A stretch of 64,000 nucleotides of DNA from Naegleria gruberi. Lineage: Eukaryota. The stretch is from assembly GCA_000004985.1 (NCBI GenBank), contig GG738869.1; one strand, 5' to 3'. Below are positions 16,120 to 59,241 of this stretch, piece after piece; the first letter of the stretch is position 1, and every line of letters starts with the position of its first letter. The notes below the pieces were generated by a model, which saw nothing but the letters and a program-made list of their open reading frames with translations, ran no database searches and had not been told where the DNA came from. Position numbers and translations under genes: made by a program.

Positions 16120-16306
16120 ATGAATTAATAACAAATATTATTTATTCAATCAGTTTATAATTTCAACAAGAGCTTGGCATAAGAACACGCGTTGTTCTAC
16201 CACGCGTAAAATACGCAATTTCTTTTTGAATCCATTTTGCATTGAATTTTTTATTAATAAACCATCAGCGTCGGAGCATAATTCTCTCAAAATCAACATT
16301 AAAAAA

Positions 16307-22662: not shown

Positions 22663-24270
22663 TTATTGCAAAGCACTGGCAGTATTTGGACGAGTCATTG
22701 ATTGATTAAGTGTTTTTTTCAAAGCAAACTTTTCTCGTTTCAAATTATTTTCTTTTTGCTTAAAGTTAAGTTCAGTGGTAGTAATAGAATCTTGGAGAGA
22801 TGCAACTTGGTCTTGGAGAGCAACAATCTTCTTCTTAAGGAGTTTTTGATCTGAAATTTTAGACTTTTCCAAAACATCAATCTTTCTTTCCAAGCTTTCG
22901 ATTGCTGTGTCCTTTTCACTTAGGATATTATCTCTTTCATTGGATAACTTTCTTAATTCATCTATATCTTTCAATAAAACATCAACAATTGCTGATGGAA
23001 CCATTTCCTCTTCCCCACTTTCGTTAATTTGAGACAATTTATCTTGAATTACTTCTGGGTTACGCCTTGCTTCCTTCATCAACTTGTCAACTTTTGTTTC
23101 TTTCAGTGCTTGGGTAATACTATCGAACTTTTGCTTTTGAGCCTCTAATTTCTTATCTTGAATTTGAATAGTTCTTTCCATGATTGACTTTTGTTCTTGC
23201 AGCTTCTTAATTTCATTGTGAAGGAATCTCTTATCACCTTCTAAAGCTTTAACAGGCACAATATCTTTTTCGATAACAAGTTTTGAAATTTCCTTATCCT
23301 TCTTTTGGGTTGATCTTTCAGCCATCTTGATTTCTTGCTTTAATCTTTCATTTTCTTTCATAACTGTTTGAGTTCTCTTCTTGTATTCTTCATACTCTTC
23401 TGCAGTGTTCTTCAATATCTCAATTTGATTATTCAATTCTTCTAAACTCTTTGTCTTCATTCTTGTAATCTCTTGAATAGTCTTGATTTCTTTTTGTGCC
23501 TTTTCTAACTTCAACAAGAGCTCAGCGTTCTTACATTCAGTTTGATATGCCTTATCGTGTTTGGACTCGATATTGAAAATCTTCTTTTCTAAATTGTCGA
23601 TGGCCTTATCTTTCTTATCGATTGAGACTTGGAGAGTATGAACTTCTGTTTCCAGGGTGCTGATTTTTACATTCTTCAACTTGATCTCATTTTCTAAACC
23701 AATAATTCTATCCAACGAATCTTCTTGTAGGACAGATCTGCTTTTTTGGTCAGAGGAAGATCTAAGTTTTTGAAGGGAGGCAATCGGGCTATGTTCTTCA
23801 AGTACTTTCTTTTCATTTTGGAGTGTTTTAATTTCCATTTCTTGCAATCTGCTTTTTTCCTTGATCTTATCATAAATATCTTGAGTATTTTCCAAATCAA
23901 GTTGTAATTTATCTATTGTTACCTCCTTTTGTTTAACTACCTTCTCTAACACTGTTTTTTCGTTGCTAACTAAATCAAAGGCTTTTTGAAGATCCTTAAA
24001 GTCTTGTTCCAAACGAATATATTTTGCGTAAAGTTCTTGTGATGGTGATTGTACAGAGAAGGGTACGGCTCGTTTGCTTGGAGTTCTTAGTTTGTCTTTC
24101 CTAAACACATCAGTGTTATTGAGGTCCAACAATGGAATAACAGGGGAGGATGGATTTTGTACTTCAGTAATATCTTCATTCACAATATCCTCAGTAACAA
24201 ATTCTTCATCCTGCAAATTACTACCATCTAGTGAGGTATCCAAGGCATCATTGGTAGGCGTCTCTGTCAT
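22663..24270 (-). CDS. Long coiled-coil protein (golgin/myosin-tail-like)
   Basis: ATG at 24270 (MTETPTNDALD). About 535 aa of heptad-rich sequence (LQNEKKVLEE..., EIKLKNVKISTLETE...). Confidence 0.45.
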   Translation of the reverse strand: MTETPTNDALDTSLDGSNLQDEEFVTEDIVNEDITEVQNPSSPVIPLLDLNNTDVFRKDKLRTPSKRAVPFSVQSPSQELYAKYIRLEQDFKDLQKAFDLVSNEKTVLEKVVKQKEVTIDKLQLDLENTQDIYDKIKEKSRLQEMEIKTLQNEKKVLEEHSPIASLQKLRSSSDQKSRSVLQEDSLDRIIGLENEIKLKNVKISTLETEVHTLQVSIDKKDKAIDNLEKKIFNIESKHDKAYQTECKNAELLLKLEKAQKEIKTIQEITRMKTKSLEELNNQIEILKNTAEEYEEYKKRTQTVMKENERLKQEIKMAERSTQKKDKEISKLVIEKDIVPVKALEGDKRFLHNEIKKLQEQKSIMERTIQIQDKKLEAQKQKFDSITQALKETKVDKLMKEARRNPEVIQDKLSQINESGEEEMVPSAIVDVLLKDIDELRKLSNERDNILSEKDTAIESLERKIDVLEKSKISDQKLLKKKIVALQDQVASLQDSITTTELNFKQKENNLKREKFALKKTLNQSMTRPNTASALQ

Positions 24271-24602
24271 GTTTTCTATTTTTTTTAAAATTACAAAATT
24301 TTGAAAAGGCGCGAAACACATCATGACGCAAAATATGTAACGGTGATGCCCTTTGATTTTATCTCTAAGAAGAAAACTGGTCGTGTGGACTCGATTATTC
24401 CAATGCCTTACAATGCTTGTGCTAGTCAATAAGTTGAACATCCAGATCAATTTTAAAAAATATGTAGTTTATTTGGTACGTTCTTTCTAAAAAGTTATCG
24501 TTATTGAGGAGAACGAAAGGGTTTTTGGATTTGTGTTAAAGATCAACAGTAAAAAACAATAAAATTCATCCACTTAATTAAATTTGAAACTACAAAACAA
24601 TT

Positions 24603-24676
24603 TACCGACAATGGGGCTCGAACCCACGACCCCAGGATTAGAAGTCCTGTGCTCTATCCAACTGAGCTATGACGGC
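24603..24676 (-). tRNA. tRNA-Arg (anticodon UCU)
   Basis: Minus-strand sequence GCCGTCATAGCTCAGTTGGATAGAGCACAGGACTTCTAATCCTGGGGTCGTGGGTTCGAGCCCCATTGTCGGTA folds as a cloverleaf. The anticodon loop is CTTCTAA. CCA is not encoded and a T-run follows on the minus strand. Confidence 0.8.
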
Positions 24677-24986: not shown

Positions 24987-25060
24987 GCAGCGATAGATCA
25001 GTTGGTTAGATCGTAAGCCTAACACGCTTAAGGTCGCGGGTTCAAGCCCCGCTCGCTGTA
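24987..25060 (+). tRNA. tRNA-Val (anticodon AAC)
   Basis: GCAGCGATAGATCAGTTGGTTAGATCGTAAGCCTAACACGCTTAAGGTCGCGGGTTCAAGCCCCGCTCGCTGTA, with anticodon loop CCTAACA. The GCCTTTTGTT T-run follows immediately (Pol III terminator). Confidence 0.85.
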
Positions 25061-28743: not shown

Positions 28744-30984
28744 ATGTCTCAAGATAAAGCCAACAGAGAACATATCGCAAAGCTTGTTGTTGAAGCAGTT
28801 AAAAATATCTATGATGTGGATGTTAGCTCCCTTCAAAACGAGTTTGCCAGTAAATTGGAATTACCAAAGGAATATGATATGCTTCACAATATTGCTTTCC
28901 CATGTTTCGCTTTGGGAAAGCCTTTGACTCCAAAGAAGCCTAAAGAAGTCAAATTTAATGATTTCATCATGAATATTGCTTCCGATTTGGCAAAGGAAAT
29001 AAGTAGAATTGTCAAGGAAAAAACTGATGTTGTTGTTGAAAATTGTGTAGGTGAAGGTCCATATGTCAACTTCTTCTATCAACCTGCTCACTTAGGAAAA
29101 GCTATAGAAGAGGTTCACAATGGAAATTTCCTTTCCGTTAGAGAATCAAAGAATGAAAATGTCATGATCGAATATTCTCAACCAAATACTCACAAGACCT
29201 TCCACGTTGGTCACATGAGAAATGCAGCTCTTGGTAATTCACTTGTTTTGTTATACGAATGGTGTGGTTACAATGTACACGCTGTCAATTATATTGGTGA
29301 TGTTGGTGCTCACATTGCTAAATGTTTATGGTACTATCTTTACTACATCAAAAAGACAACTTTGGAAGAATTCGAAGCTCTTGACCTTACTCGTGAACAA
29401 ATTGTTGACATGTTGGAAGAATCTAGACCAAAGGATATTCCTCATGTTGAATGGTTGGGTAACCTTTATACTGAAGGTTTCTATCAATTAGACTTTGATT
29501 CTTGGACTAAATATCCACTTATTGGATACATTACTGCTAAAATTTTGGACATTCAAAACCATCCAACTAATGACAAATGGAAGATTCTCACTGTCACCAA
29601 TGGAACTGAAAACTTTACTGTTGTTTGTGGTGGTAAGGATTACAATGTTAATGACATTGTTGCCTATGCTCCACTTGGTAGTAAGAAGGGTGCTAGACTT
29701 GTTACTGAAGTTGATAAGCAAGGTGTTATCTCACAAGGTTTCATTTTGAGTCAAGCTGAACTGGGTAGCTCTGAAAATAAGGAAAAGATTCACATTTTCC
29801 CTGCTGATTCACCAGTTGGTATTGAACTCACCGAATTGGGAAGAAAGGCAGACTGTAATGTTGATGCTTCTATTAACATTGGTCAAGAATTCAAGAAGAG
29901 AGAATCACAATGTAAGACTCTCTTGAGAGCTATGGAAGATCACAAGAAGAATATTTCCATGTTGTGGGAAATCACTAGAACTTGGTCAATTGAAGACTTT
30001 AAATCTATTTATAAGTGGAGTGACTGTAGATTCGACCACTTCTTCCATGAATCTGATGTTGGTGATGAAAGTAAGGAAATTGTTCTTAAGGCCTACGAAG
30101 AAGGTAAACTTATCAAATCTGATGGTGCTATTGGCGCTGATTTGGGTAAGCTTGGTTTCTGTGTTTTGTTGACTTCTGCTGGTACTGGTTTGTACGCTAC
30201 TAAGGATTTGGCTCTTGCTAAGAGAAAATTCGAAGAATTCAAAGTTGACAGAAGTGTATATGTTGTCGACGTAAGTCAAAGCTTGCACTTCCAACAAGTC
30301 TTCAAGACATTGGAAGTCCTTGGTTTTGAACAAGCTAAGAAGTGTAAACATTTAGCTTATGGTATGGTTGTTTTACCTGATGGTAAAATGAGTAGCAGAA
30401 AGGGTAACATTATCTATTTCAGTACTCTTCAAAAGTCACTCACCCAAAATATTACTGACAACTTTATGTCCAAGTATGAAGGTGAATGGCCAAAGGAAGA
30501 AATTGAAGAAACTACCAGAAAGATTGCCATCAGTGCCATCAAATATGGTATGCTTAACCAAGATAACAATAAGGATATTACCTTTGTTCTCAAAGAATGG
30601 GCTTCAAAGTCTGGTAACACTGGTCCATATCTGATGTATGCTTATGCTAGAGCTGTTTCCGTTGTTAACAAGATTGGTTTGGATAGCAGTGTCACTATTG
30701 ACTACTCATTATTAACTGATGAAACTGAAAGAAAGCTTTTGTCAACAATTCTCCAATATTCAATTGTTGTTGAAAGAGCTGCTGAACAATACAAGCCACA
30801 ATTGCTTTGTATCTTCCTCTACAATCTCTGTAAGCAGTACAGTAAGATGTATGAAGCTGTCAGTATCAGAGATGCTGCTACCCCAGAACTCAAACAAACC
30901 AGATTGAGATTAGTTGCTGGCTTCGCAAAGGTTCTCAAACATGGTCTTGGATTGTTGGGTATTTCAACTGCTGAGAGAATGTAA
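28744..30984 (+). CDS. Arginyl-tRNA synthetase with an inserted EMAPII/Myf-type tRNA-binding OB domain
   Basis: Arg_tRNA_synt_N-like N-terminus, then SQPNTHKTFHVGHMRN (HIGH) and NYIGDVGAHI. An inserted block IGYITAKILDIQNHPTNDKWKILTVTNGTENFTVVCGGKDYNVNDIVAYAPLGS...GVISQGFILSQAELG lies within the catalytic core. C-terminal motifs are KMSSRKGNIIYF and SGNTGPYLMYAYARAVSVV, followed by a DALR-like helical end. It is 746 aa, versus about 600 typical. Confidence 0.75.
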   Translation: MSQDKANREHIAKLVVEAVKNIYDVDVSSLQNEFASKLELPKEYDMLHNIAFPCFALGKPLTPKKPKEVKFNDFIMNIASDLAKEISRIVKEKTDVVVENCVGEGPYVNFFYQPAHLGKAIEEVHNGNFLSVRESKNENVMIEYSQPNTHKTFHVGHMRNAALGNSLVLLYEWCGYNVHAVNYIGDVGAHIAKCLWYYLYYIKKTTLEEFEALDLTREQIVDMLEESRPKDIPHVEWLGNLYTEGFYQLDFDSWTKYPLIGYITAKILDIQNHPTNDKWKILTVTNGTENFTVVCGGKDYNVNDIVAYAPLGSKKGARLVTEVDKQGVISQGFILSQAELGSSENKEKIHIFPADSPVGIELTELGRKADCNVDASINIGQEFKKRESQCKTLLRAMEDHKKNISMLWEITRTWSIEDFKSIYKWSDCRFDHFFHESDVGDESKEIVLKAYEEGKLIKSDGAIGADLGKLGFCVLLTSAGTGLYATKDLALAKRKFEEFKVDRSVYVVDVSQSLHFQQVFKTLEVLGFEQAKKCKHLAYGMVVLPDGKMSSRKGNIIYFSTLQKSLTQNITDNFMSKYEGEWPKEEIEETTRKIAISAIKYGMLNQDNNKDITFVLKEWASKSGNTGPYLMYAYARAVSVVNKIGLDSSVTIDYSLLTDETERKLLSTILQYSIVVERAAEQYKPQLLCIFLYNLCKQYSKMYEAVSIRDAATPELKQTRLRLVAGFAKVLKHGLGLLGISTAERM

Positions 30985-31045
30985 ATAAATTTTTAGAAAC
31001 TTTTTGTAAAATAATATTTTAACAATTATTCTGAACAAGTAAAAA

Positions 31046-31660
31046 ATGGGATTTAACTTAGCCTGGAAATATTTTTCGATCATCTTGCTGGTTACTCTTG
31101 CATATTTAATTCATAATCAATATATTGAAAATAATTATAACAAACAGGAAGGATGGGTTATGGATTTAGAGGAAGACTATAGATTATTTTCTATTGAAAA
31201 TACAACAATCACAAATATCAACACTTCCGAAACCAATAACAACACACTAACCACATTCATGACTATGAATATCAATCCAAATGATTGGCAAAACATAACA
31301 AAGGACCTAGAAACAAAACAATACCTTGCTATTATTATTCAATTTTACACATCTAATAGTGTTTACTGCCAACATTTAGTTCCAGTTTGGAAGGATCTAA
31401 TCATGAATGTAAAGTCAAATAATACATTGGCTGGAAAGCTAAGATTTGGACAATATCACGTTAGTGGTCGAGAAAGTTTTATATTTACACGAAGTATTTT
31501 AAATAGAGGGGTATTAAATTTTCCTACTATTGTAATGTTTCACAGGGACAGAAATAACACTAAGATTATTCCTAGATTTTATCATGACAAGAGAACAGTA
31601 GACCTGTTGGAAAAATTTGTAAATAGAATTTTAATTGATATTGAAGCTTATGACAAGTGA
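31046..31660 (+). CDS. Small type-I membrane protein with a thioredoxin-like fold (single-Cys)
   Basis: N-terminal TM/signal anchor (FSIILLVTLAYLI). AIIIQFYTSNSVYCQHLVPVWKDL resembles a Trx-like region with one Cys. Confidence 0.3.
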   Translation: MGFNLAWKYFSIILLVTLAYLIHNQYIENNYNKQEGWVMDLEEDYRLFSIENTTITNINTSETNNNTLTTFMTMNINPNDWQNITKDLETKQYLAIIIQFYTSNSVYCQHLVPVWKDLIMNVKSNNTLAGKLRFGQYHVSGRESFIFTRSILNRGVLNFPTIVMFHRDRNNTKIIPRFYHDKRTVDLLEKFVNRILIDIEAYDK

Positions 31661-33308
31661 AACGAGTTCCTTGTATGCTTATCGAGATATCTCATCTGAG
31701 TCTTATATCTCTGTTTTACTAGTGCATAATTTAAGGGAGAGAGTGGTTTTCTATGTTCGGAAATTAAATGTGTTTCTTGATGGTAGCTCGTGTAAATTCT
31801 AGATGAAACTAGTGTTGGGAAAGAATACCTAGATGGTGTATTATATGAAGAGAATTGAGATGTATGGTGAGAGTAAGATCTAGATGATTGAGGAGTTGAA
31901 TATAGGGTAGTAGATGTGTTATTTATATTTCTAGAACTTCTGTAAGGTGTTGTAGTTGTACTTGTGGAACTACTTAAGGAAGAATCATTTTCAGGAAATA
32001 AAAGCATTGTAGAATCCGTGTGCTCAAGTGTAAATTTGTGATTGCAATTTGGACAATGCAGAGGTGATGTTTGAGAAAATTTGGAATTGTCCACAATTGT
32101 TTGAATACCAACAGATCTTGTTTCAATAGATTGGATTGAAAAATCTCTGATTGGTGTTGGTGTTGATGTAAGTGATGTGTTTGTTGATGAAGAAATTTCC
32201 AAATCTTCAGGGGTTGTTTGGGTTGTTTGTACAATATGGAAGGATACTTTCTTTGGAGTATTAATGATTTCCTTCTCGTTTTTTTCTTTTATCTCAAATT
32301 TGTTGGTACCACTAATTATCATACTTGAGTGCTGATTTGGATTAGAAAGATCAGGAATAATCTTGGTTATTGGTAGCGAGCTATTTCCAAAGGTTTCATC
32401 ATCCATAGTTGGAGATTCGTTTTGAAGAAAGTCCAATTTTTTAGCAACTGAAATCCTCTTTTTAGTAAATTCTCCATCCTTTGTTTTCACAGTACTATTT
32501 TGAGCGAGCTATTATTTCTTGAATTATATTAAAAAACCTACCTTATTGATTTCAAAATCTTATGTTCAGGAGTAAGAAGTGGACTCGATGGTGCATTTGA
32601 ATTTCCAGTGCTTCTTATTGGGGAAAGGAATGATATATCAATTTCTCCAGTCCTAGGGCTTGACTTGCTTGGAGAGAAGAAAAAGTCTTCACGTCTATTT
32701 TCCCCAATAATTGGTGACATAAATTGAGGTGGAGAACTAAAACTAAATTCTTCCTCATCATCCATATAATTATTATTCTTCCTTGGAGTAAATGAAAGAT
32801 TTTCATTTTGTTCCTGTAATTGCTTATTATTTTCATCCATAAATGAACTATATAATACTACAGCCTTTCCCTTTTTTGATTGTGGTGACAAATCCTCCTT
32901 TCTTTGCTTAAAATATTCACTATCCTCCCTTTCAATTGTGCTTCTTTGGGATTCCTTATTATAAATGATTAAAATTACAAAAATTCTTTCAAAACATACT
33001 TCAAAGAATTCTTCTTGTTGCTTCTCTTTCAAAAAATCTGAAATATTTGAAATGTCCACTGGTTTAATTTTTGCAAGTGTATCAATACTCAAATTTAGAC
33101 TAACATTGGATGTATTATGAAATATTTCTTCTGGTTCATCTTCAAAATCGTCATCATATAAAAGTTCTTCATCAAGTGGAGGAAAATTTTCATGATTATC
33201 GGAAAGAAAAGGATTGATCGGAACGTAATTTATAGTATCAGCAACATTAGAGGAGGGAGAGAAGGAATGTTTTGGACTGGAAAGATTAAGTTCTCTTTGT
33301 TTTGGCAT
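31648..33308 (-). CDS. Ser/Thr/Pro-rich low-complexity protein with a C-terminal CPNC..H zinc-knuckle-like motif
   Basis: Two exons (33308..32542, 32494..31648) with a GTAGGT donor and a 47-nt intron. The ATG lies in MPKQRELNLSSP. There is an acidic DDDFEDEPEE block and HCPNCNHKFTLEH. The promoter carries E2F-like sites. Confidence 0.45.
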
Positions 33309-33385
33309 TGAAACTCTCCAGTATTGCAAAAGAGTGAGACAGAGAGCGAGTCTTTTTTTTGGCTTTGCTTCTTGTCCTTTGGCAA

Positions 33386-33458
33386 TTTTGCGCCTTAATT
33401 TTGCGCCAAAAATGTAGTCAACCTATGAAGCAAAATGCTATTCAACATTGGCGCCAAT
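33386..33458. promoter_or_regulatory. Cluster of E2F-like sites in the promoter of the 31648..33308 gene
   Basis: TTTTGCGCC (33386-33394), TTTTGCGCCAAAA (33399-33411) and the perfect palindrome ATTGGCGCCAAT (33447-33458) lie in a locally GC-richer block 80-150 nt upstream of the ATG at 33308. Confidence 0.4.
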
Positions 33459-33590
33459 TATTTATGAAGTACCCTATGAACTCATTCAAAGGCATTTGAA
33501 AGGGTTGCTGCGAAGTATATCATTCGAATCGACTTGAAACTCTATTTTTCACTAACAACAACAAGAATATATTAAGAGTGAAATAATAAT

Positions 33591-35300
33591 TTAATAATCT
33601 TCTACGACTGCAGAACTAAAAACTGATTTCTTAGATTTGTTGTTACTCTTCTTTGAGGAGGATTTCAAGTCTGCATACGAACTTTCAAAGAGTTCTTCTT
33701 CATCATCGAAGGAACGATGAATTGGTTCAGCATTTGGGACAGCAGTCTTTCTGAGAACTGGAGTTTCAAATTTGATATTACTAAAGTCATCTTCTTCCTC
33801 ATCGTCATCAGACATTTCCAATAGACTTGGATCATCCACTTGAATGGCTTCATCATCGATTAATTCATCATTTTCTGGTGATTTAATCTTGAGTGGAGGT
33901 GAGATGAATCTAACAGATGGAAGTGCCTCTCTTGTCTTTATGGCAGGCTGTTGTTGTTGTGTGTTGGATTGTGTTTGAGAATTTGTTGAGGATTTAAAAG
34001 TTGGAGGAGCATCACAATCGTCCTCTTCAATATTTGTCGTAGCAAGTAGAGTGTGAAGAGATTTAATACTCTTTGATGAAACATCTTCCTTATCCAATTC
34101 TTCCAAACCATCAGTGAGTTTTTGAGATTTAAGTTTCTTTAAACGTTTGGCAAGTAACATGTTTTCTTCTTCCAATCTTTCAACTTCTTTCTTTTTTCTT
34201 GTCAATTGGTCTCTCATATCTTCCAATAATTTTTCATATTTAACTTCAGTTCCAATTAACTTTTCATTCAAATCATCAATCTTCTTCTTTAACATGATAA
34301 TAGTTTCATGATCAGCAGAATCATGTGAATGACTTGTTGATTTTAATGAACTCTTAAAATCATCATCTTTTGACAACTCAATACTAATACGTTTCTCTCT
34401 GGTAACAACTGTTTTAGAGACAGGTTGTGGTTTAACTTGATTTTCCATTGACTTTTTCATATCCCTCTCCATTTCACGTTGTTCTTTTTGAAGATCTAAA
34501 ACCATTTGTTGTCTCATTTGTTTGAGTTCTCTTTTAATTTTATCCTCTTCTATTAATTTAAACTTTTCAACTTGTTGTTTAATTAAATCGAGTTGTTCTT
34601 GTTTATATTGTTTCAATTCCTTATCAATTTCCATTTTAGATGATGGGGTAGTTTGTTCTGTTTTTTCCTCAACTGGTGATTTGTTAATAGAAGAAACTGG
34701 TGAGGTAGCTTTTGATGATGAAGCAACTGGTGTTTCAACTTTTTCATTTGATTTAATAGAACTGATACTAAATGTTTTCCCAAATGTTACTGAATCTGGA
34801 TTAATAGTCAAGAGTGGACCTTTGTATTGTTTTTGGGATGCATAATCAGACAAGTCAACTAGACCTCTCAAAATTCCAGCAATAATTGGTGATTTTTCAT
34901 CAAAGGTAGCACATAATTTGTGGAAATCCTTTGAATTAAATGTTGATAGTTCACTGTTGTTTGTCAATAATAATTTCTTTTTGTATTTTAATTATTATTA
35001 ACTAACATAATTGTTATCTTGAAAACTTACAATTTCCTTTAGGAAGGTTTCACAATTTTCTTGTTCCATAAATTCCATTCCTCTCGGATTCTTGTTGAAC
35101 ATTACGAAACGTCCTTTCAATTTTGTGATTAATTTACAAAGAGCAACACCATCTTTGAATGAAGAGAAAAATGTAGAGATTGGAGTAGGAGATTCCAAGT
35201 TAATAGACACTTCTTCTGATTTGTTTGTTTCGTTTATCCAATCACGAAGTGCAATTAGTGTTGGTGATGACTTTAAACAATCATCAGATAATTTAGACAT
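33591..35300 (-). CDS. Calponin-homology (CH) domain protein with a long Ser-rich coiled-coil C-terminal region
   Basis: Two exons (35300..35031, 34976..33591) with a GTAAGT donor and a 54-nt intron. The N-terminal CH domain reads LIALRDWINE...FKDGVALCKLI...ENCETFLKEI. Coiled-coil heptads follow (EQLDLIKQQVEKFKLIEEDKIKRELKQMRQQ). Confidence 0.55.
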
Positions 35301-35386
35301 TTTTTTTTACTGATTGGTGACGTTGATGATTTATTTGATCTTATAGATCCATTCGTTATTGTGCACTTGTTAGCTTTTTGTGTAAA

Positions 35387-36453
35387 TTATTTGTTTAATC
35401 TCAATTTATCATATTGAGAAAGTGCTTCAAAATCAAAAGTATATTTGTAAGCTCCTGAATAGTCAGAAATGAGAACAGAATTATCAATCTTTGGAGTTAA
35501 CAAAGCATTAAGATCCTTTTCTTTCAATGTACCTTGAATATTGTACTTGTCAATTGTTTGTTGAGTTAAGAACATTTTAACAATACCCCACAAAAACTTG
35601 AGAGACCATGGAGTGTTAATAACAACAATAGCAGCCAATCTTTCAACATAATAAGTACCCTTTTAAGAGTGTTTGAGTATTTTCCAATAATTTAAAAAAT
35701 ACTTACAAGTTCAATAAACATATCCTTGGTTGATTTGATCATATTAGCACTCAATGATGAATCAGTAAGATCAACAATCCAAGTAGTTTGATAAACATTT
35801 TGTGGCATTCTTCTACTGCAAAGTTCATACAACCAAACAAAGAATCTGAATTTCATTTGTTTGCTTTCTTCCTTTTCATTGTCCATCTATTAAATTATTC
35901 AAATTATTATTATTAAACTAAATTTCAATTATGTACTAACCTTATCATTTCCGAGTCTGACATAGATAACTGGGTGTCCAACCTTATCAAAACCACTATG
36001 GAAAAGACTTCCTTGTGATGCAAATTGCTTCACATCACTAATATCAATATTCCAAGGTTGATACTTCTTTCTCCATTCACAAGCTCCCTTTAAAACAGGT
36101 TCTGCTTCATCAACATTCCAATTATATCCCGATAAGAATCTATAAAGTGTCAAGTCAGAGAGGAAATATTCAGCACCGAATGTATTTTCCTTCTTATCGT
36201 GATCGTGCAAAAGTTCATTTTCATTCCATTTGGTATTAATTCTCTCTCTAAAATCGTTAATTTTCTTCTTCTTTTCATCATTTAATGTATCCAAAATTGA
36301 TGATACGGTAATATTTGGAATTTCACCAAAGAGTTTATCCTCTATACACAATAATGAATAATAATATTAATTATAAATAATTTAAAAACAAGCCGTTCGG
36401 ATCCAATACAAAATTTGCAACAACCACTTACCAAGTTCCTTCAAGCTAGCCAT
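35387..36453 (-). CDS. Sec14-like phosphatidylinositol transfer protein (CRAL-TRIO domain)
   Basis: Four exons (36453..36432, 36341..35941, 35886..35707, 35659..35387) with introns of 90, 54 and 47 nt. The CRAL-TRIO N-terminal LYRFLSGYNWNVDEAEPVLKGACEWRKKY is followed by the lipid-binding domain (VIYVRLGNDK...WIVDLTDSSL...INTPWSLKFLWGIVKMFL). Confidence 0.7.
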
Positions 36454-36603
36454 TTTTTTCTTCTATTTTAAATAACAAGATCGATCTTGCAACTGGATGT
36501 ATTGATTGTAATATTGTGATGAAGTTTGATTCTTGACATTGAATAATGACTTGTCTCTTTGGTTTCAACAGAAAATGTTGAAGAACAATAGCAGCTTAAC
36601 CAA

Positions 36604-39438
36604 ATGCAAGTTGATACAAATTCCTCTTACAAAAAAATGTCTTTTCTCCATGCAACATCCTTTGCCTCTGTTGAAATGAAGGATGCAACGACTTGTTCCG
36701 AAAAATTTACTCTTCAAACACAAGTGGAATCCAATAGTAATGTTAAAGTACATTTATTTGAATTGGATGGTGATAATTATTTGATTGTTGCAAGAGAAAG
36801 GTGGATTGATATTTATTTATTACATGAGGAGGATAATCACTTGACAAAGGCTTGCTCAATTAAAAGTGATTTACAAATTATTGATTTTATATTTGATAAC
36901 TATAATATTTACGTATTGTGTTCCGATGGATCACTCTTACTCACAACACTATCATATCATCAAGATGCAAATATTTTCACATTTTCGTCATGGAACCAAT
37001 TAAATACTAATACTACCAATTTTCCTGTTAAATTGTTGAGATATAATGATGCAATAGTTGTGTGCTATATTGAGAATGAGATACAATTTATCAATTTATC
37101 AAATGGCAAAATATTTACTTATCAATATAATGGAGTTCATTTTGACAGTTGTGTTCTTGGTAGTTACTTTTATTTGTGTATCAATAGTACACTAGTTTAC
37201 AAAATGAAATTTAATGAGGAATATAGTTTGATTGAATCTGAGAAAATTAAATCACCATTTGATATTATATCTTTACATACAAGCGAATCTAAAATTATTG
37301 CAATTACTGCTGATTCTAGGATTATTGATATTGAAACATTAGACCAATTACTTAAGATTGAAACTGATCAATATATTTCTGACTATCATCTTTTGCAAAA
37401 AGGTTATTTATGCACTGAACATGGTGATATTTATTCGATTGATGGAAATCAAGCAAATATGCTCTATTCTAAACTTGGTGTTGACAAGATTTGCAAATCA
37501 AGTCAAGAAGCTAATTTCCTTATTGGTTATTCTTCTGTTAGTGATTTGATTTACATACCGTTAGAAGAATCAATGACTGATCTTCAACCTCGATCCCTAC
37601 TGCCAAATATTTCATATGTCATAGATTTTGATAAGAAGGGAGATGATTTTATTATTGCTACTCCAAAACGCCTCTGTAGTGTTAAGAAAGGAATGTCATG
37701 TAGAGTTACTTCTCTAACAGACGAATCTTATGATGGAATAGATAATGTTTTCACTCCAACAACAGATTTTATCATTTTGAGTTTTGTAAATCAAAGTAAG
37801 GTACTTAGAATTTCTGAAGACTCCATTGATGAATGCAATAACAATGTATTCGAATCAAGTCAGGCCACATTTTACTGTAATCAAATTCTTAATTCGTTTA
37901 TTTTACAAGTAACAGCCACTGAAATGAGATTAATGGATTTACAATTAAGTACATTGCTTTCTTCCATTAAAATTAATAGCACAGTTATTACTAGTAAGGC
38001 TAATAATATTTATGTAAGCTATGAAAATAAGATTACTAAATTTGAGGTCAGTCAAGAAGGACAAATAACTGAATCATTTTCCATTACCTTAGATAGAGAC
38101 ATATCTTCAATGAGAGCAACTGATGGTAATCATTTAATTGCCAGCACCTACTCTGGCATTATTTATTTCATTTCAGGAAATACAATTTCTAAAACTATTG
38201 ATATTAACAGTCAGCAAATTGAAACAAATATTGTGGAATCCATTTTCTATACTGGCTCACTTTTACTTCTGGGGTTACGAGATGGTCACTTATTGGTTTA
38301 CGATATTGATCAACTCATTAAAAAGTTCAAATTGGGCGATGTACCTGTACAGCTTAGAGAAACATTTGATGATATAATTATTGCTGTTTCTAACAACTGC
38401 TATTATATTTCTGTAGATTCTTCTATGAATCTCAACATTTCTAATTTATTAGTCAACGATCACATCCTTTCAGTTCAAAACTTTAATGTTACAGGTTATG
38501 AAAACTCCCTGTTGTGTCTTTCTAGTGATAGTAAGATTAAGGTGATCAGTATTGAAACTACCAATTTCCAACCAATGATTAAAGAAATTTATTCCAATGA
38601 AGATTGTCAAAGAGTTCATGTAAACGAAGAGGATAATTCCATAATTTATGTATGCAACAATTATAGTAGTTTGAGATATATTGACGATAGCAAGGAGACA
38701 TTAACACTCTACACATTCCCTCCTTCAGAAAAAATCTACTCAATTACTTCATTTAAGGTAAAGAATGACGATTCACATGATAGTAATTTTGTCATTGTTG
38801 GTACAAAATACACTCGCCATCACAATAATATTATCATGAATAAGGACCCAACTAGTTTATCTCATGGATTACTGCACGTACTGAAACTAGGAAAAGTATC
38901 TGATTCCTACAAATGTGAACATGTTGGATCATGCGAACTTCCTTACATGGTTTATTCTATCAAACAGTATAACAGTCAATATTTGCTTGTTGGTTACGGT
39001 GAAAGACTTGGATTATTTTATTTTGATCAAAAAGAAATGAAATTAGTTGACCAAGCTAGTGTAAGACATTTTGTTAATAGTATTGATATTTGTGATAATT
39101 TGATATGTATTACAGATAGATTTGATGGACTACTTTTCTACATTATTCAAGAGGGTAAATTTTATTATTTGAGTAATGTTAGCTTGAGATTAGATGCATT
39201 GAATTCATCTACATGCAGATTTATCAACTCCAAACGATTAGCAACAATTGATAGAAGCCACCAATTAATTATTTGGAGAATTAATAACATCAATACATCA
39301 ACACATACTATTTCACTTTCCAAAGAAAAATCATTTGATACAAAAGAACTTGCTCTCAAAGTTATTCCAATTTCTAATCATCAACTTTTCTACATTACTT
39401 TGAATGGTAGTATTAATTATTTAAATATAGAGGAATAA
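36604..39438 (+). CDS. DDB1/CPSF160/SF3b130-family beta-propeller protein (CPSF_A-like C-terminus), short form
   Basis: 944-aa single ORF. The C-terminal region NFVIVGTKYT...LLHVLKLG...YLLVGYGERLGLFYFD...ICITDRFDGLLFY matches the CPSF_A propeller pattern. It is shorter than canonical DDB1 or CPSF1. Confidence 0.4.
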   Translation: MQVDTNSSYKKMSFLHATSFASVEMKDATTCSEKFTLQTQVESNSNVKVHLFELDGDNYLIVARERWIDIYLLHEEDNHLTKACSIKSDLQIIDFIFDNYNIYVLCSDGSLLLTTLSYHQDANIFTFSSWNQLNTNTTNFPVKLLRYNDAIVVCYIENEIQFINLSNGKIFTYQYNGVHFDSCVLGSYFYLCINSTLVYKMKFNEEYSLIESEKIKSPFDIISLHTSESKIIAITADSRIIDIETLDQLLKIETDQYISDYHLLQKGYLCTEHGDIYSIDGNQANMLYSKLGVDKICKSSQEANFLIGYSSVSDLIYIPLEESMTDLQPRSLLPNISYVIDFDKKGDDFIIATPKRLCSVKKGMSCRVTSLTDESYDGIDNVFTPTTDFIILSFVNQSKVLRISEDSIDECNNNVFESSQATFYCNQILNSFILQVTATEMRLMDLQLSTLLSSIKINSTVITSKANNIYVSYENKITKFEVSQEGQITESFSITLDRDISSMRATDGNHLIASTYSGIIYFISGNTISKTIDINSQQIETNIVESIFYTGSLLLLGLRDGHLLVYDIDQLIKKFKLGDVPVQLRETFDDIIIAVSNNCYYISVDSSMNLNISNLLVNDHILSVQNFNVTGYENSLLCLSSDSKIKVISIETTNFQPMIKEIYSNEDCQRVHVNEEDNSIIYVCNNYSSLRYIDDSKETLTLYTFPPSEKIYSITSFKVKNDDSHDSNFVIVGTKYTRHHNNIIMNKDPTSLSHGLLHVLKLGKVSDSYKCEHVGSCELPYMVYSIKQYNSQYLLVGYGERLGLFYFDQKEMKLVDQASVRHFVNSIDICDNLICITDRFDGLLFYIIQEGKFYYLSNVSLRLDALNSSTCRFINSKRLATIDRSHQLIIWRINNINTSTHTISLSKEKSFDTKELALKVIPISNHQLFYITLNGSINYLNIEE

Positions 39439-39439
39439 A

Positions 39440-40180
39440 TTATTTGGTAATCCACCAATTTTCATCTTCATCATTCAAAGTTGTTGGAATATGTGAATAT
39501 TTCATATCTTCACTTGAAATGAAAGCCAATTCACTCATATAGCCTCCAATAGCTTTTTCATCTCTAAAAGATTCTTGTTCTCTTCTATTAGTTGGAATAT
39601 CTCGCAGTGGATGATTAAAGTGACAAGCATGTGTACCAGAGTGACCTGGTTTTAATACACACGGTGCCTCACAAAATCTACAATCACACAAATGTCCACA
39701 TTTCAAAATTGGTTCACCTTCAACATGTCCAAATATACATTCATGTTTATGAGGATGACCAAGAGGTAATTTACAAATATGACCATCTTCACAAACCCAA
39801 GAACATAGTAATTGTACTTGAGTTGTTGGTCTGAAAAAGAAATTCATTATTGGAATATTTTGTAATTGATTATCTCTTAATCTGGGAAATAAAAAAGCAA
39901 CCAATGGATCAATAAATAAATTTGAAATAACTGTTTGATATACTCTTGTAATGGTTGGTTTTGTTTGTTGTACTAATTGAGTCCGAAGTGAATAAGTATC
40001 GCTCAATCTTTGAGATCTTAAAGAAGAAATTAAATTATTATTTGATAAATTATCATTAGAATCATCATCCATTAAATTATCATCCAAAGAAAACGATGGT
40101 GGTTGAACAAGTAAAACTCCTCCAGGTGCATTTCCGACAGTTGGGCTTGTTGTAGATTTTTTATCACTCAAAGCCTTCAT
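39440..40180 (-). CDS. Cys/His-rich putative zinc-binding protein (unassigned family)
   Basis: ATG at 40180. The C-terminal half is CSWVCEDGHICKLPLGHPHKHECIFGHVEGEPILKCGHLCDCRFCEAPCVLKPGHSGTHACHFNH, with about 10 Cys and 9 His in regular spacing. Confidence 0.35.
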   Translation of the reverse strand: MKALSDKKSTTSPTVGNAPGGVLLVQPPSFSLDDNLMDDDSNDNLSNNNLISSLRSQRLSDTYSLRTQLVQQTKPTITRVYQTVISNLFIDPLVAFLFPRLRDNQLQNIPIMNFFFRPTTQVQLLCSWVCEDGHICKLPLGHPHKHECIFGHVEGEPILKCGHLCDCRFCEAPCVLKPGHSGTHACHFNHPLRDIPTNRREQESFRDEKAIGGYMSELAFISSEDMKYSHIPTTLNDEDENWWITK

Positions 40181-40422: not shown

Positions 40423-41982
40423 ATGAGCCGTTCAATATCTTCCGCCACAATCATCTTGTTGATTGTTGGCATTAGCATGATCATGTTAAATTCATCTTCC
40501 TCATTCGTAAATGCTCAAGATCCAAAATCAAATGTTACCCAATTGATTCAATATTGGGGTTATCCAGTTGAACAACATTATGTAACCACAACAGATGGTT
40601 TTATTCTCTCCGTGTAGGTAATCAGGATTTTTTTTCATCATTTAATATTTATTCATCATCCATATCGTCATCATCATTAATTTTCATACTGACCAATTTG
40701 TTCATGATCGTTATCCAACATTTACAATTATTTATAATTTCATAAACAATTGATAGTCAGAGAATTCCATATGGACGTTCAAGTTTAAGTAGACAAATTC
40801 CAAAAGATAAAAAGAAGGTAGTTTTCCTTCAACATGGTTTTTTGGATTGTTCTGCTACTTGGGTTAATAATTTACCATATCAATCATTGGGATATATTTT
40901 AGCTGATGCAGGATTTGGTTTGTATTTGTTTTTTTCTAATAATTTGTTAATAATTTTAAATTATTGTCTCTTAAATTTCCATATTCGGACAATTTCAAAA
41001 AATTCCGTGGACAATAGATGTTTGGTTGGGTAATGCTAGAGGAAATGAATATTCCAATAGAAATATTTACCACTCTAAACATGATAAACAATTCTGGAAT
41101 TTTTCATGGGATGGTAAGTTTGAATATTTATTACAAAAATTGTAACAAGAAATTTCAATTCTAAATGAAGAAATGGCAATTTATGATCTTACTGCAATGG
41201 TTGATTATGCACTTAAAGTCAGTGGCCAACCAAAATTAGCCTATGTTGGTCACTCTCAAGGTACAACTATGGGATTTGAATGTTTTTCTAGTAATGCTGA
41301 TTCAAATACTAAATATCCAGCATGTCCAAAGGATTTCACAAACAAAATTTCCATTTTTATTGCTATTGCTCCAGTAACTTATTTGGAACATGTTAATAGT
41401 CCAATGATGGAAGCTCTTGCAAAACTTCATGTTGATGAAATTTTAGAATTCCTTGGTGTTGGTGATTTTTTACCAACCACTCAACAATTAGAAAAGTGGA
41501 TTCCTGGAATTTGTTCAAATTCAATTCTTCAAAAAGCTGTCTGCATGAACGTTTACTGTATAATGAGTGGTTGTGATGGTTTGGAAAATAAGGCAAACTC
41601 CTCTCGTTTACCTTTATATATGGATCGTTTACCTGCAGGAACCTCAACAATGAATGCTGGACATTGGGCCCAATTAGTTAGATCTAAGAAATTCCAAATG
41701 TTTGATTATCATTTTGGTAATTATGATCATTATCATCAAGTATCTGCTCCACAAATTGAATTGTCAAATTTACATGTTGATATTGCAATTTATCATGGAG
41801 GTTTGGATATTTTGGCAGATTACAATGATGTTAAGAAATTATTGAGCAAACTTCCAAAAGAACGTCTCAAGAATGTAATGTTCTTTAGTGATTTTGGTCA
41901 TATCGATCTCGTTTGGGGTATTAACAATTATCAACTTTTCTTCAATGATATTGTTAAAAGAGTTTCTGATTCTTTCAATTAA
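40423..41982 (+). CDS. Acid lipase (lysosomal/gastric lipase family, alpha/beta hydrolase)
   Basis: Four exons (40423..40613, 40757..40917, 41018..41113, 41171..41982) and a signal peptide. [43 protein letters not shown]...FSWDEMAIYDL...YVGHSQGTT aligns to LIPA/LIPF, including the GHSQG nucleophile elbow. Confidence 0.8.
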
Positions 41983-46073: not shown

Positions 46074-46436
46074 TGATAAGTTTGTTTCTCAATATCATAA
46101 TAATAAATTACAGTGATTAGATGATATCCAGTGATAAGGAATAAAAAGAATCCGAAATAAGTTTGATGAAGGAGTTTGCTTTTTTTTGAAAAAGTGTAAG
46201 AGTTTATGGCGCAATTTATTGAGGAGATGATCATCTCTAACGCAATTCATGACAATTCATCTCCACTCAATTGAAGTCAACTCAAGGCTTATTTTGAGGA
46301 AAAAACTCATTTGTGAGGATTCCTTTGTGCTTTGTTAGCCATTAAACTTTGTTTATCATGTTTATTATCCATTTTGAATGCAATTTCAACCATTCCTCAA
46401 TCAACAGAACTATTGAAATTGCACCACAACAAAAAA

Positions 46437-54835: not shown

Positions 54836-56899
54836 ATGATGCAAAGTGAAGAGGATGCATCCTCACTAAAATCCTATCCATCCTCTAATCATCATCATCA
54901 TTATGATCATCATCATCGTACCGGTAGTAGTAGTGGTACTGGTAATGGTGTTAGTAGTACAACCACTACACCTGTTTCTCCAGTAAAGAAAAAAGTAGTA
55001 GCCTTTGGATCCGATGTTAGTGATGATGAACAACAAGATGAAGATAGTGAATTAATTGTTTATATGGATGAGAGTAGATTATTTAACAAACATCGTAATC
55101 ATTATTCATCTTCCAATAATACCTCATCCAATTCTACTGTTAATAATTCATCTAATCAAGGCTCAAATGATGAAGAATTAACAGCCTTTGAAAATTTCTC
55201 AAATTCAGTTTCGGGAACTAAAATTTCATATTCAAGTCGTAAAAGAAGAGTATCTGTTTGGATACCAACTTTATCAAATGGTTTAATTTCATCACTAACT
55301 GCTAAAATTACAAATACTGTTGAATTTGATTTTAATAAGAAGAATTTAGATTCAAATGCTAGTCCTATGAAAGAAAAGAAATATGTTGGATATTCTATTG
55401 ATATTACAATTGGATTTAATAATGATCATACTAAATGTCAATGGTCTGTTATAAGAAGATATAATGAATTTAAGAAGTTTTATTCACTTTTAAAGAAAAC
55501 ATGTACAAATAAGGATAAATTTGGATTAATTAAATTTCCAAATAAGAGTCCAATTACAAGTTTTAACGATTCAAATTTATTAGAATTTAGAAAAAAGATA
55601 TTTAATGAATTTTTGAGTTCAGTCATTTCAATGGCTTCACATGAAACTGAAGAAGGAAAGAAAATTTCTTCTTTTGAATTTTTGATTTATTATTTTTTAG
55701 ATATTCATAATTCACCTGTTTCATTTTTATTTGATCATCCATATGGAGAAGTTTTTAAACAAATTAATCAATTTTATCAAACAACAAGAGAAGAAAAGAG
55801 AAGATTAAAAAGATTAATTGAAATTGAAAGAAATTATGATGAAGAACAAGAAAGTGATAATGCTCAATATTTATTAAGAGAACAAGAATGGTATGAATAT
55901 AAATTTCAAAGACTTGAAGAATTAAATAGAGAATTAAATGAATTAAGATTAGGAGGTGATGATTTTTTTATAGATTTAAAAGGAAAACCACATATTCTTT
56001 CAGTTGATAAATTATCAAGTTCACTTCATATTTATTTATTAAGTGAAAATACATCTGATAGATTAGAACATACATTTGTACAACAAATTTATATAGATTC
56101 AATTCAAATTATTAGAGAATGTAATTCAACATATAGAGGAGATGGATTTGAAATGATTGATATTCAATTATTGAATGGTGAATCTTTTCAATTTTATGTT
56201 TTTGATAGAAAGGAATTAATTTACTCTGTTGGTGCTCAAGTTAATCAGTACAAATTAGCAAAAGCTAAATTTATTAACTATCTTGTTTGTACAGTTTTAA
56301 GATTGAAAAAGGAAAAATATGATGAAAGTAATCAAATTCATGAACAAGATTTAATGGAACTTTATTCATTACTTAAACCTGATGATCCACTTACAAAGAG
56401 AAAATCAAGACAATGGATTAATATTGGATTTCAAGGTGATAATCCTTCAACAGATTTTAGAGGAGGTGGTTACATGTCATTGAGAATGTTATTATTCTTT
56501 GCTCAAAATGAAAGTGAAACGATGAAATTATTATTAAGTGATCATGCTGATTATCCATTGTGTGTATCTGGAATTAATTTATTCTTTACTTTATGTACTT
56601 TATTAGATTTGGATAATATTTCAACATCACCTACTATTGAAAGTATTGAAGAGAAATTTCCACTTTTCAGATTTTTATGTCTTTTATTGAAGAATAATTA
56701 TGAACAAGATTGTGAACATTTATTTGGACAAGCATTCATTCTATTATGTAGATTATTACACAAAATATTCATTGATGAATGTGCTGGATATATGGACTAT
56801 CCAAATATTGTGGAAAAGTGTAAAAAATTATTAGAGGAGGCACTTGTAAAGAGACCAAATGATTTTGATAGTTTGAGAGTTTCACTTGGTCTTTTATAA
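54836..56899 (+). CDS. PX-domain / ELMO-domain protein
   Basis: PX-like RRYNEFKKFYSLLKK...FPNKS...LLEFRKKIFNEFL. C-terminal ELMO/CED-12 motif WINIGFQGDNPSTDFRGGGYMSLRMLLFF. An N-terminal His/Ser-rich low-complexity region precedes both. Confidence 0.65.
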   Translation: MMQSEEDASSLKSYPSSNHHHHYDHHHRTGSSSGTGNGVSSTTTTPVSPVKKKVVAFGSDVSDDEQQDEDSELIVYMDESRLFNKHRNHYSSSNNTSSNSTVNNSSNQGSNDEELTAFENFSNSVSGTKISYSSRKRRVSVWIPTLSNGLISSLTAKITNTVEFDFNKKNLDSNASPMKEKKYVGYSIDITIGFNNDHTKCQWSVIRRYNEFKKFYSLLKKTCTNKDKFGLIKFPNKSPITSFNDSNLLEFRKKIFNEFLSSVISMASHETEEGKKISSFEFLIYYFLDIHNSPVSFLFDHPYGEVFKQINQFYQTTREEKRRLKRLIEIERNYDEEQESDNAQYLLREQEWYEYKFQRLEELNRELNELRLGGDDFFIDLKGKPHILSVDKLSSSLHIYLLSENTSDRLEHTFVQQIYIDSIQIIRECNSTYRGDGFEMIDIQLLNGESFQFYVFDRKELIYSVGAQVNQYKLAKAKFINYLVCTVLRLKKEKYDESNQIHEQDLMELYSLLKPDDPLTKRKSRQWINIGFQGDNPSTDFRGGGYMSLRMLLFFAQNESETMKLLLSDHADYPLCVSGINLFFTLCTLLDLDNISTSPTIESIEEKFPLFRFLCLLLKNNYEQDCEHLFGQAFILLCRLLHKIFIDECAGYMDYPNIVEKCKKLLEEALVKRPNDFDSLRVSLGLL

Positions 56900-57276
56900 C
56901 AATTTTAATTAAATTTAGTAATTTAAGTTCAGTTGTAAATTTCATCATCCACCATGATGGATCTTCAAAATAACTCATTTTCAAAGACTAGTTGGAGTAT
57001 CTCATCAAATCTTGAGGTTTAGGATCAAACAGTAATTATGCCAAAGTTTCTTCAATTTCTTTTTCACCAATTTGCATTTGTTTACAGTTTCGATCAAACG
57101 TGATGTGGTTCAATGAATCCATTACAAGTTGTTTGAATGACAAAGTCTTTGCAATCCAAAGCTGTGCAGAAATGAACCTTTCATAAGGCTTTCATTATCT
57201 CCACACTCCGTAAGCAACAGGAGTTTAGGTCCTACCTAATTAATCATTCTCATCACAATGCCAGCTGTCAAAAAAA

Positions 57277-58956: not shown

Positions 58957-59241
58957 TTTTATTTGTTTACAGTAATAAATTATTTAAATAATATTATAAA
59001 ATATTCAATTACTATTCTTCTCCAATCAGCTGTATTCACTAACTTATTTACATAAAACGAATAGGTAGCATAGATCTTACTCAGAGATCTTATCCTCTAA
59101 ACTAGATTCGAACTATTACAAGTATAATATTACAAATATATCAGTTTCTTCATAATTATCTTTTGATTTTTGTAATTGTTAAATTAGAAGCTAATTAGAT
59201 CTCTAACAAAGGCTAAAAAAAAACTTCTTCAAATAAAAAAA

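Follow-up and report, generated by a model that had tools for sequence, protein, structure and literature searches.

E2F-type sites conserved upstream of a predicted Bora homologue in Naegleria and related amoebae

Which protein might read a tight group of GCGC-containing words that stands immediately ahead of a single gene in the amoeba Naegleria gruberi, and what might that gene do? The group lies in a stretch of 64,000 nt taken from contig GG738869.1 (GenBank assembly GCA_000004985.1), which was analysed over its whole length and is hereafter called the window. The gene that follows it, NAEGRDRAFT_67902, is publicly annotated as 'predicted protein' only; as shown below, its product appears from sequence comparison to be a divergent homologue of Bora, the cofactor of Aurora-A in mitotic entry. 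An initial annotation of the window had proposed palindromic E2F-type sites in the promoter of this gene. The three motifs on which that proposal was based were found at the places indicated, i.e. TTTTGCGCC at 33386-33394, TTTTGCGCCAAAA at 33399-33411 and ATTGGCGCCAAT at 33447-33458. The features needed to follow the argument are as follows.

33309..33590, minus strand: intergenic/promoter region of 282 bp, from the stop codon of the upstream gene, which encodes a CH-domain coiled-coil protein, to the ATG of the predicted Bora homologue
33447..33458, no strand assigned: distal palindromic E2F-type site ATTGGCGCCAAT, core GGCGCC, a perfect palindrome at -139 to -150 from the ATG
33399..33411, minus strand: proximal site 1, TTTTGCGCCAAAA on the plus strand and TTTTTGGCGCAAAA in the orientation of the gene, at about -103 to -91
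33386..33394, minus strand: proximal site 2, TTTTGCGCC on the plus strand and AAGGCGCAAAA in the orientation of the gene, at about -88 to -78
31648..33308, minus strand: predicted Bora homologue, NAEGRDRAFT_67902 / XP_002677055.1, three exons, 522 residues

Rarity and conservation of the sites

Relative to the A of the ATG (33308, minus strand), the three sites span -78 to -150. A perfect E2F consensus, TTTGGCGC, is contained in proximal site 1 (33403-33410, minus strand); proximal site 2 is downstream of it, the distance from the core of the first to the GGCGC core of the second being exactly 13 bp. The GGCGCC of the distal site starts at 33450. The cluster exceeds chance expectation. The GC content of the window is 31.5%, and GC-rich words are rare in it: GCGC occurs at 14 positions, 3 of which fall inside 62 bp at this promoter, and a grouping of at least three GCGC in 70 bp was reached in only 6 of 2000 dinucleotide-preserving shuffles. 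Similarly, 4 of the 9 occurrences of GCGCC/GGCGC are found inside 66 bp here, and the only GGCGCC of the window is that of the distal site. The E2F consensus TTTSSCGC (S being G or C) is matched twice, by TTTGGCGC in this promoter and by TTTCGCGCC at 24308-24316. The core hexamer SGCGCS is also restricted to these two places, each of them no more than 150 nt upstream of an ATG.

To the individual words must be added their conservation. We compared the window with the orthologous loci of Naegleria lovaniensis (21.9 kb), N. fowleri (21.7 kb), Willaertia magna (9.7 kb) and Acrasis kona (7.5 kb), using patterns that had been fixed before these loci were inspected, namely the literature consensus TTTSSCGC and the 9-mer TTTTGCGCC of the initial annotation. 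The promoters of the four Bora orthologues contained the following sites, positions being relative to the ATG.

N. lovaniensis: TTTCCCGC at -49 and TTTGGCGC at -36
N. fowleri: TTTCCCCGC at -51 and ATTGGCGCAAAA at -37, counted from the restored upstream ATG (see below)
Willaertia magna: TTTCCCGCC at -41
Acrasis kona: TTTTTGCGCC at -45

Matches to TTTSSCGC or to TTTTGCGCC were present in all four loci and every one of them was in the Bora promoter, at -29 to -70 from the ATG. The chance that all such matches would fall within 150 bp of the Bora ATG is about 1e-10, a figure obtained by our own multiplication over the four loci. The E2F-type sites of the initial annotation are thus supported, in that they match the consensus and are conserved before the orthologous gene in five heterolobosean species.

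Alignment of the promoters of the three Naegleria species showed that proximal site 1 corresponds to TTTCCCGC in N. lovaniensis and TTTCCCCGC in N. fowleri, and proximal site 2 to TTTGGCGCA and ATTGGCGCAAAA, respectively. The distal site has SGCGCS equivalents in CGCGCG at -120 (N. lovaniensis) and CGCGCC at -68 (N. fowleri), each of which is the sole SGCGCS of its 22-kb locus. The arrangement common to the three species is therefore a distal SGCGCS followed by two cores 13 bp apart, at -99/-86 in N. gruberi and at -46/-33 and -47/-34 in the other two. Little aligns in the rest of these promoters. The conserved sites differ from each other at the two S positions (TTT-GG-CGC, TTT-CC-CGC and TTT-CG-CGC), and their flanks are constant.

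The gene order around the sites was also recorded. Synteny of the window (28744-40180) with N. lovaniensis and N. fowleri comprises the predicted Bora gene, a gene for a 204-residue protein, the arginyl-tRNA synthetase gene and a Ypi1-like gene, after which it breaks. In the two other species the Ypi1-like gene is followed by an ATG7/G-alpha/ELMO block, the window's copy of which is at 54836-61017. On the other side, in N. lovaniensis and N. fowleri, two additional genes (CRAL_TRIO and AAA_22/NACHT) separate Bora from the next gene upstream, which encodes a protein of 512/518 residues without Pfam match and may correspond to the CH-domain gene of the window.

The product of NAEGRDRAFT_67902

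The three exons of the gene extend over 33308-33000, 32954-32542 and 32494-31648, and are separated by introns of 45 and 47 nt. The public protein XP_002677055.1 (537 residues) is 100% identical to the translation of this model, save that the 45-nt intron, which is in frame, is kept as coding. An intron is present at the same position in N. fowleri; it has 62 nt there and must be spliced. The N. gruberi segment (32955-32999, minus strand; VCFERIFVILIIYNK) is translated in XP_002677055.1, and the orthologues do not have those 15 residues. As stated in the initial annotation, the gene encodes a disordered protein rich in Ser, Thr and Pro, with many S/T-P sites. Homologues were found in N. lovaniensis, N. 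fowleri, Willaertia magna and Acrasis kona. Two of the database entries call for comment. The N. fowleri model FDP41_012312 (468 residues) is truncated at its N-terminus (positions 3646-4000 of the locus extract, corresponding to 9646-10000 with longer flanks), and an upstream ATG adds the family motifs NPF, ENFPPL and SIDTLAKIKPVDIS (SID motif). The Acrasis orthologue bears the label 'cc2d1b', apparently a misannotation.

No link to a known family came from plain sequence searches, which were made with Pfam for the N. gruberi protein, with a PDB sequence profile and, exhaustively, with HMMER. The HMMER search, performed on 1.8 billion representative proteins, returned only 18 relatives, which were four of the members of the query family and short fragments. 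Judged in this way, the family looks lineage-restricted, its sequences all being heterolobosean-like. The only Pfam family that recurred among 18 members was BORA_N (PF15280), which was found in 4 of them with scores below the curated threshold (best E value, 4.5e-4); no member exceeded this threshold and the N. gruberi protein gave no match.

Further evidence for a relationship with Bora was obtained by comparing profile with profile. As a reference we used 16 aligned metazoan proteins named 'protein aurora borealis', all of which contain PF15280. With full alignments, hhalign paired the heterolobosean family with the metazoan one with a probability of 88.6% and an E value of 2.6e-6. When the alignments were trimmed to the N-terminal domains, the probability rose to 94.6% and the E value was 6.7e-8 (score 48.4 over 90 columns). 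In 100 controls with shuffled columns, the highest score was 15.3 and the lowest E value 0.078. Human Bora has three defined functional elements (PMC12953601): the M1 motif around F25, a Bora-specific motif spanning residues 52-78, and the essential Ser112-Pro. They have the following counterparts, which are collinear in the heterolobosean family and human Bora.

M1 motif: NPF in human, NPF in Naegleria
Bora-specific motif: FRWSIDQLAVINPVEID in human, SLNLSIDTLAKIKPVDIS in Naegleria
Ser112-Pro: IVPSPW in human, LSPQS in Naegleria, invariant in the family

These comparisons indicate that the product of NAEGRDRAFT_67902 is a divergent Bora homologue. It shares with metazoan Bora (PF15280) the collinear NPF, SIDxLAxIxPV[D/E]I and Ser-Pro elements, a disordered remainder rich in S/T-P and an [RK]KLxF motif. 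The latter is an invariant VAKKLxF in the heterolobosean family and resembles a cyclin-docking motif, and perhaps the human RRKLF. The differences are that human F56 and W58 are replaced by leucines, that a C-terminal block, YRKPLSPLNYALVKQRYKTQ, and a CPNC element have no match in the metazoan alignment, and that heterolobosean members reach Pfam scores that are only sub-threshold, as mentioned above. A Bora homologue with S/T-P sites and VAKKLxF is a plausible cell-cycle gene, and the Naegleria protein would be expected to work with Aurora and Polo kinases.

The initial annotation had also suggested that the protein might be a target of the anaphase-promoting complex, or cyclosome (APC/C), on account of an N-terminal RxxL motif (RELNL). 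This did not hold. In R-E-L-N-L the leucines are at positions 3 and 5 rather than 4, so that the string is RxLxL, and the first 20 residues of the protein show no conservation among the orthologues. A search for a conserved RxxL (destruction box) or KEN motif in the family yielded as sole conserved RxxL-like string the C-terminal RKPLSPLN, in which the Asn is at position 8, compared with position 9 in the consensus RxxLxxxxN. An APC/C target with an N-terminal destruction box was consequently rejected.

Proteins that may read the sites

Medina et al. 2016 (PMC4862756) supply, as source data, the sequences of N. gruberi E2F, DP, RB and a two-domain DEL (E2F7/8-type). Pfam E2F_TDP was recognised in NgruE2F (E value, 1.3e-28) and NgruDP (1.8e-18), together with CC-MB and DP domains, and the RRxYD recognition helix is intact in both (RRIYDITNVLEGI in NgruE2F; RRRVYDALNVL in NgruDP). 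NgruDEL has two E2F-type DNA-binding domains. It is probable, from the sequences compared, that the GCGC-core elements are binding sites for Naegleria E2F/DP in the promoter of the Bora homologue, and possibly for DEL too. We infer that E2F/DP is the protein that reads the sites, and also the direction and timing of the regulation. Outside the proliferative window, RB-bound E2F/DP would keep the Bora gene off. Phosphorylation of RB by cyclin-dependent kinase (CDK) would then release activation, and Bora would be produced ahead of mitosis, acting as the cofactor, primed by CDK, with which Aurora-A can activate Polo kinase.

Several points weigh against binding by E2F/DP. Of the three sites in N. 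gruberi, just one has the strict consensus TTTSSCGC, TTTTGCGCC and ATTGGCGCC each being one base off the extended form TTTSGCGCS, and the sites of N. fowleri and Acrasis are also one-off variants of the consensus. The tie between the motif and an E2F regulon in N. gruberi is indirect. Furthermore, the three sites could fall within the 5' untranslated region (UTR) of the Bora transcript. Lastly, Bora is a G2/M gene, and in animals these genes are as a rule governed by cell cycle genes homology region (CHR) elements rather than E2F sites. No conserved CHR (TTYGAA/TTCRAA) was found: in N. gruberi it occurs only at -182 to -220, and none is present in the first 220 nt upstream of the gene in the four orthologues.

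Other readings of the same sites have to be considered, the simplest being that GC-rich words piled up by chance and have no function. The region was chosen by eye, post hoc; 12-nt palindromes are ordinary in themselves (37 in the window); and the block is not the 'conspicuously GC-richer' one of the initial annotation, since its GC content is 36% as compared with 30.8 +/- 6.5% for non-coding tiles of 86 bp, 21% of which are at least as GC-rich. Nevertheless, the rarity of such a cluster in the shuffled sequences, the independent, locus-unique conserved matches in four other species and the identical 13-bp spacing in three species make chance hardly credible, and the orthologue comparison effectively refutes it. 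It is also very improbable that the sites are part of the upstream gene's 3' end, as a terminator or polyadenylation signal, or act at the RNA level in the Bora 5' UTR. The intergenic region has just 282 bp, and the sites are 133-205 nt past the stop codon of the upstream gene, which is on the minus strand too. The motif stays beside the Bora ATG, however, though the upstream neighbour differs between lineages: N. gruberi has the CH-domain gene there, N. lovaniensis and N. fowleri have an AAA_22 gene, Willaertia has a CRAL_TRIO gene and Acrasis yet another one. Because of this difference, the element is to be assigned to the 5' region of Bora and not to the 3' end of its neighbour. In addition, the Acrasis site is inverted relative to the GGCGCAAAA sites of Naegleria, and a double-stranded DNA site is therefore favoured over an RNA signal. 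Rfam gave nothing significant, in that at gathering thresholds it detected two tRNAs alone in the window and no RNA family in the intergenic region.

If the element is a conserved regulatory one, it might still be read by another Naegleria protein, for instance a CGCG-box or zinc-finger factor, its likeness to E2F sites being coincidental. This would fit with the departures from the strict consensus in TTTTGCGCC, ATTGGCGCC and the CTGGCGCCTTTC site of a MAP70-like gene of Willaertia (see below), and with the sequence TTSGCGCCTT that the MAP70-like promoters have in common, in which the T-run is on the 'wrong' side for TTTSSCGC. We find this unlikely and prefer E2F to another GC-box factor, mainly because the sites vary between species exactly according to the wobble by which the E2F consensus is defined. 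Moreover, the recognition helices of both E2F and DP are intact, and palindromic and tandem arrangements are typical of E2F promoters, as exemplified by the DHFR site TTTCGCGCCAAA. The remaining possibility is that the sites are read mainly by NgruDEL, a DP-independent repressor that would close the gene after S phase, rather than by activating E2F/DP. The two DNA-binding domains of DEL, the perfect palindrome of the distal site and the A/T runs on both sides of the proximal sites (TTTTTGGCGCAAAA) would suit a two-domain protein. The sites of N. lovaniensis and Willaertia are, however, asymmetric (TTTCCCGC). Nothing in this analysis separates DEL from E2F/DP, and both classes of factor use the same sites in other systems. 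A predominant role of DEL, to which we give a low probability, lower than that of another GC-box factor, would thus be a refinement of binding by E2F/DP and not exclusive with it.

Two other candidates were tried and rejected. A gene for a non-coding RNA in the block received no support from a permissive Rfam scan of 33250-33650, in which the best E value was 0.84, far under the gathering score. A combined cell cycle-dependent element/CHR (DREAM) architecture was discarded, no conserved CHR having been found beside the GC-rich element.

If bound by E2F/DP, the sites would be ordinary in type, and no new mechanism is involved. They share with the E2F/DP sites of animals and plants (TTTSSCGC; the tandem or inverted pairs of DHFR and adenovirus E2) the consensus, the G/C wobble at the two S positions and the palindromic or tandem layout, as well as the proximity to the start codon (within about 150 nt) and the presence of E2F, DP and RB in the organism. 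They differ in that N. gruberi is a heterolobosean (Discoba) and that two of its three sites are one-mismatch variants. A second comparison is with Dictyostelium, where RblA represses 57 S-phase and 41 mitotic genes, so that its reach includes most mitotic genes, and has been proposed to act with E2F and DP (PMC3386910). Both organisms are amoeboid protists with E2F, DP and RB, and in both, genes of mitotic entry or of the spindle appear to be under RB/E2F, not replication genes only. They belong to separate supergroups, and the evidence is the expression pattern of an rblA mutant in Dictyostelium, whereas it is the conservation of cis-elements in Naegleria. As to Bora itself, human BORA is a late cell-cycle target of DREAM, reported to bind this complex and to carry CHR elements (PMC4747163). 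An E2F-family complex is implicated at a Bora gene in both cases, the difference being that the Naegleria sites are full E2F-type elements without conserved CHR (TTYGAA).

In the collection of papers that was searched, we found no description of E2F cis-elements in Heterolobosea, nor of Bora in Naegleria. The sites described here provide the E2F/RB pathway of a discoban protist with a conserved candidate cis-element; in this group, knowledge of the pathway comes from gene inventories only. The most useful by-product of the analysis is the discoban Bora homologue, which gives a likely function (Bora, an Aurora-A cofactor in mitotic entry) to a 'predicted protein' gene of N. gruberi and to its N. 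fowleri orthologue. If true, these findings would mean that E2F's DNA specificity and the Bora-Aurora-Polo module are both found in a lineage far removed from animals, and would add to the evidence from Dictyostelium that in amoeboid protists RB/E2F acts on mitotic genes besides those of S phase. A broader proposal, which we make tentatively and with less than even confidence, is that E2F/RB directly gates mitotic entry in Heterolobosea through the transcription of Bora, and that the CDK-Bora-Aurora-Polo module, possibly with its control by E2F, dates from the last eukaryotic common ancestor and is no animal invention. Such an age for the module is suggested because a Bora recognisable by its M1, Bora-specific and Ser-Pro motifs is found in Discoba.

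A second putative target and other GC-rich words of the window

The second consensus match of the window is also situated in a putative promoter.

24308..24316, minus strand: E2F-consensus site TTTCGCGCC, at -38 to -46 from the ATG at 24270
22663..24270, minus strand: MAP70-like coiled-coil gene, 535 residues, Pfam MAP70 with an E value of 1.4e-9 (37.8 bits for a cutoff of 27)

The Pfam match covers the C-terminal coiled-coil part of the protein only. In a survey, MAP70 was listed among the components confined to one eukaryotic supergroup (bioRxiv 10.1101/2024.01.08.573270). Orthologous MAP70-like promoters have a GGCGCC core at -38 in N. lovaniensis, at -71 in Willaertia and at -41 in a metagenomic Naegleria-like contig, and this core is the only SGCGCS in each of the three loci. 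The MAP70-like gene is thus a putative second target of the same motif. Just upstream of its promoter in the window are two divergent tRNA genes, tRNA-Arg(TCT) at 24603-24676 (minus strand) and tRNA-Val(AAC) at 24987-25060 (plus strand).

The 26 open reading frames of the window with a Pfam match did not include a replication gene. They are of housekeeping type: RNA-dependent RNA polymerase, GH31, NPRL3, L24e, arginyl-tRNA synthetase, DDB1-like, USP, DTW, Vps26, ClpB, ELMO, G-alpha and ATG7. Two isolated GGCGC words have promoter-like positions: the first, at 526, precedes the ATG at 561 by about 35 nt, and the second is at 46208. The latter is part of GGCGCAA (46208-46214; AAATTGCGCCAT on the minus strand), which resembles the TTTTTGCGCCAT site of Acrasis and is placed in a divergent intergenic region, between a gene for a USP-type ubiquitin hydrolase (ATG at 46073, minus strand) and a DTW-domain gene. 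At 41663-41674, within the open reading frame 41173-41982, there is a near-twin of the distal palindrome, ATTGGGCCCAAT, in which GGGCCC replaces GGCGCC; it is probably coincidental. Finally, CGCG occurs at 7 positions in the window, and two ACGCGT hexamers 9 bp apart (AACACGCGTTGTTCTACCACGCGTAAAATACGC) are found at 16187-16207, in the intergenic region after the NPRL3-like gene. This pair could be another regulatory element or a hairpin.

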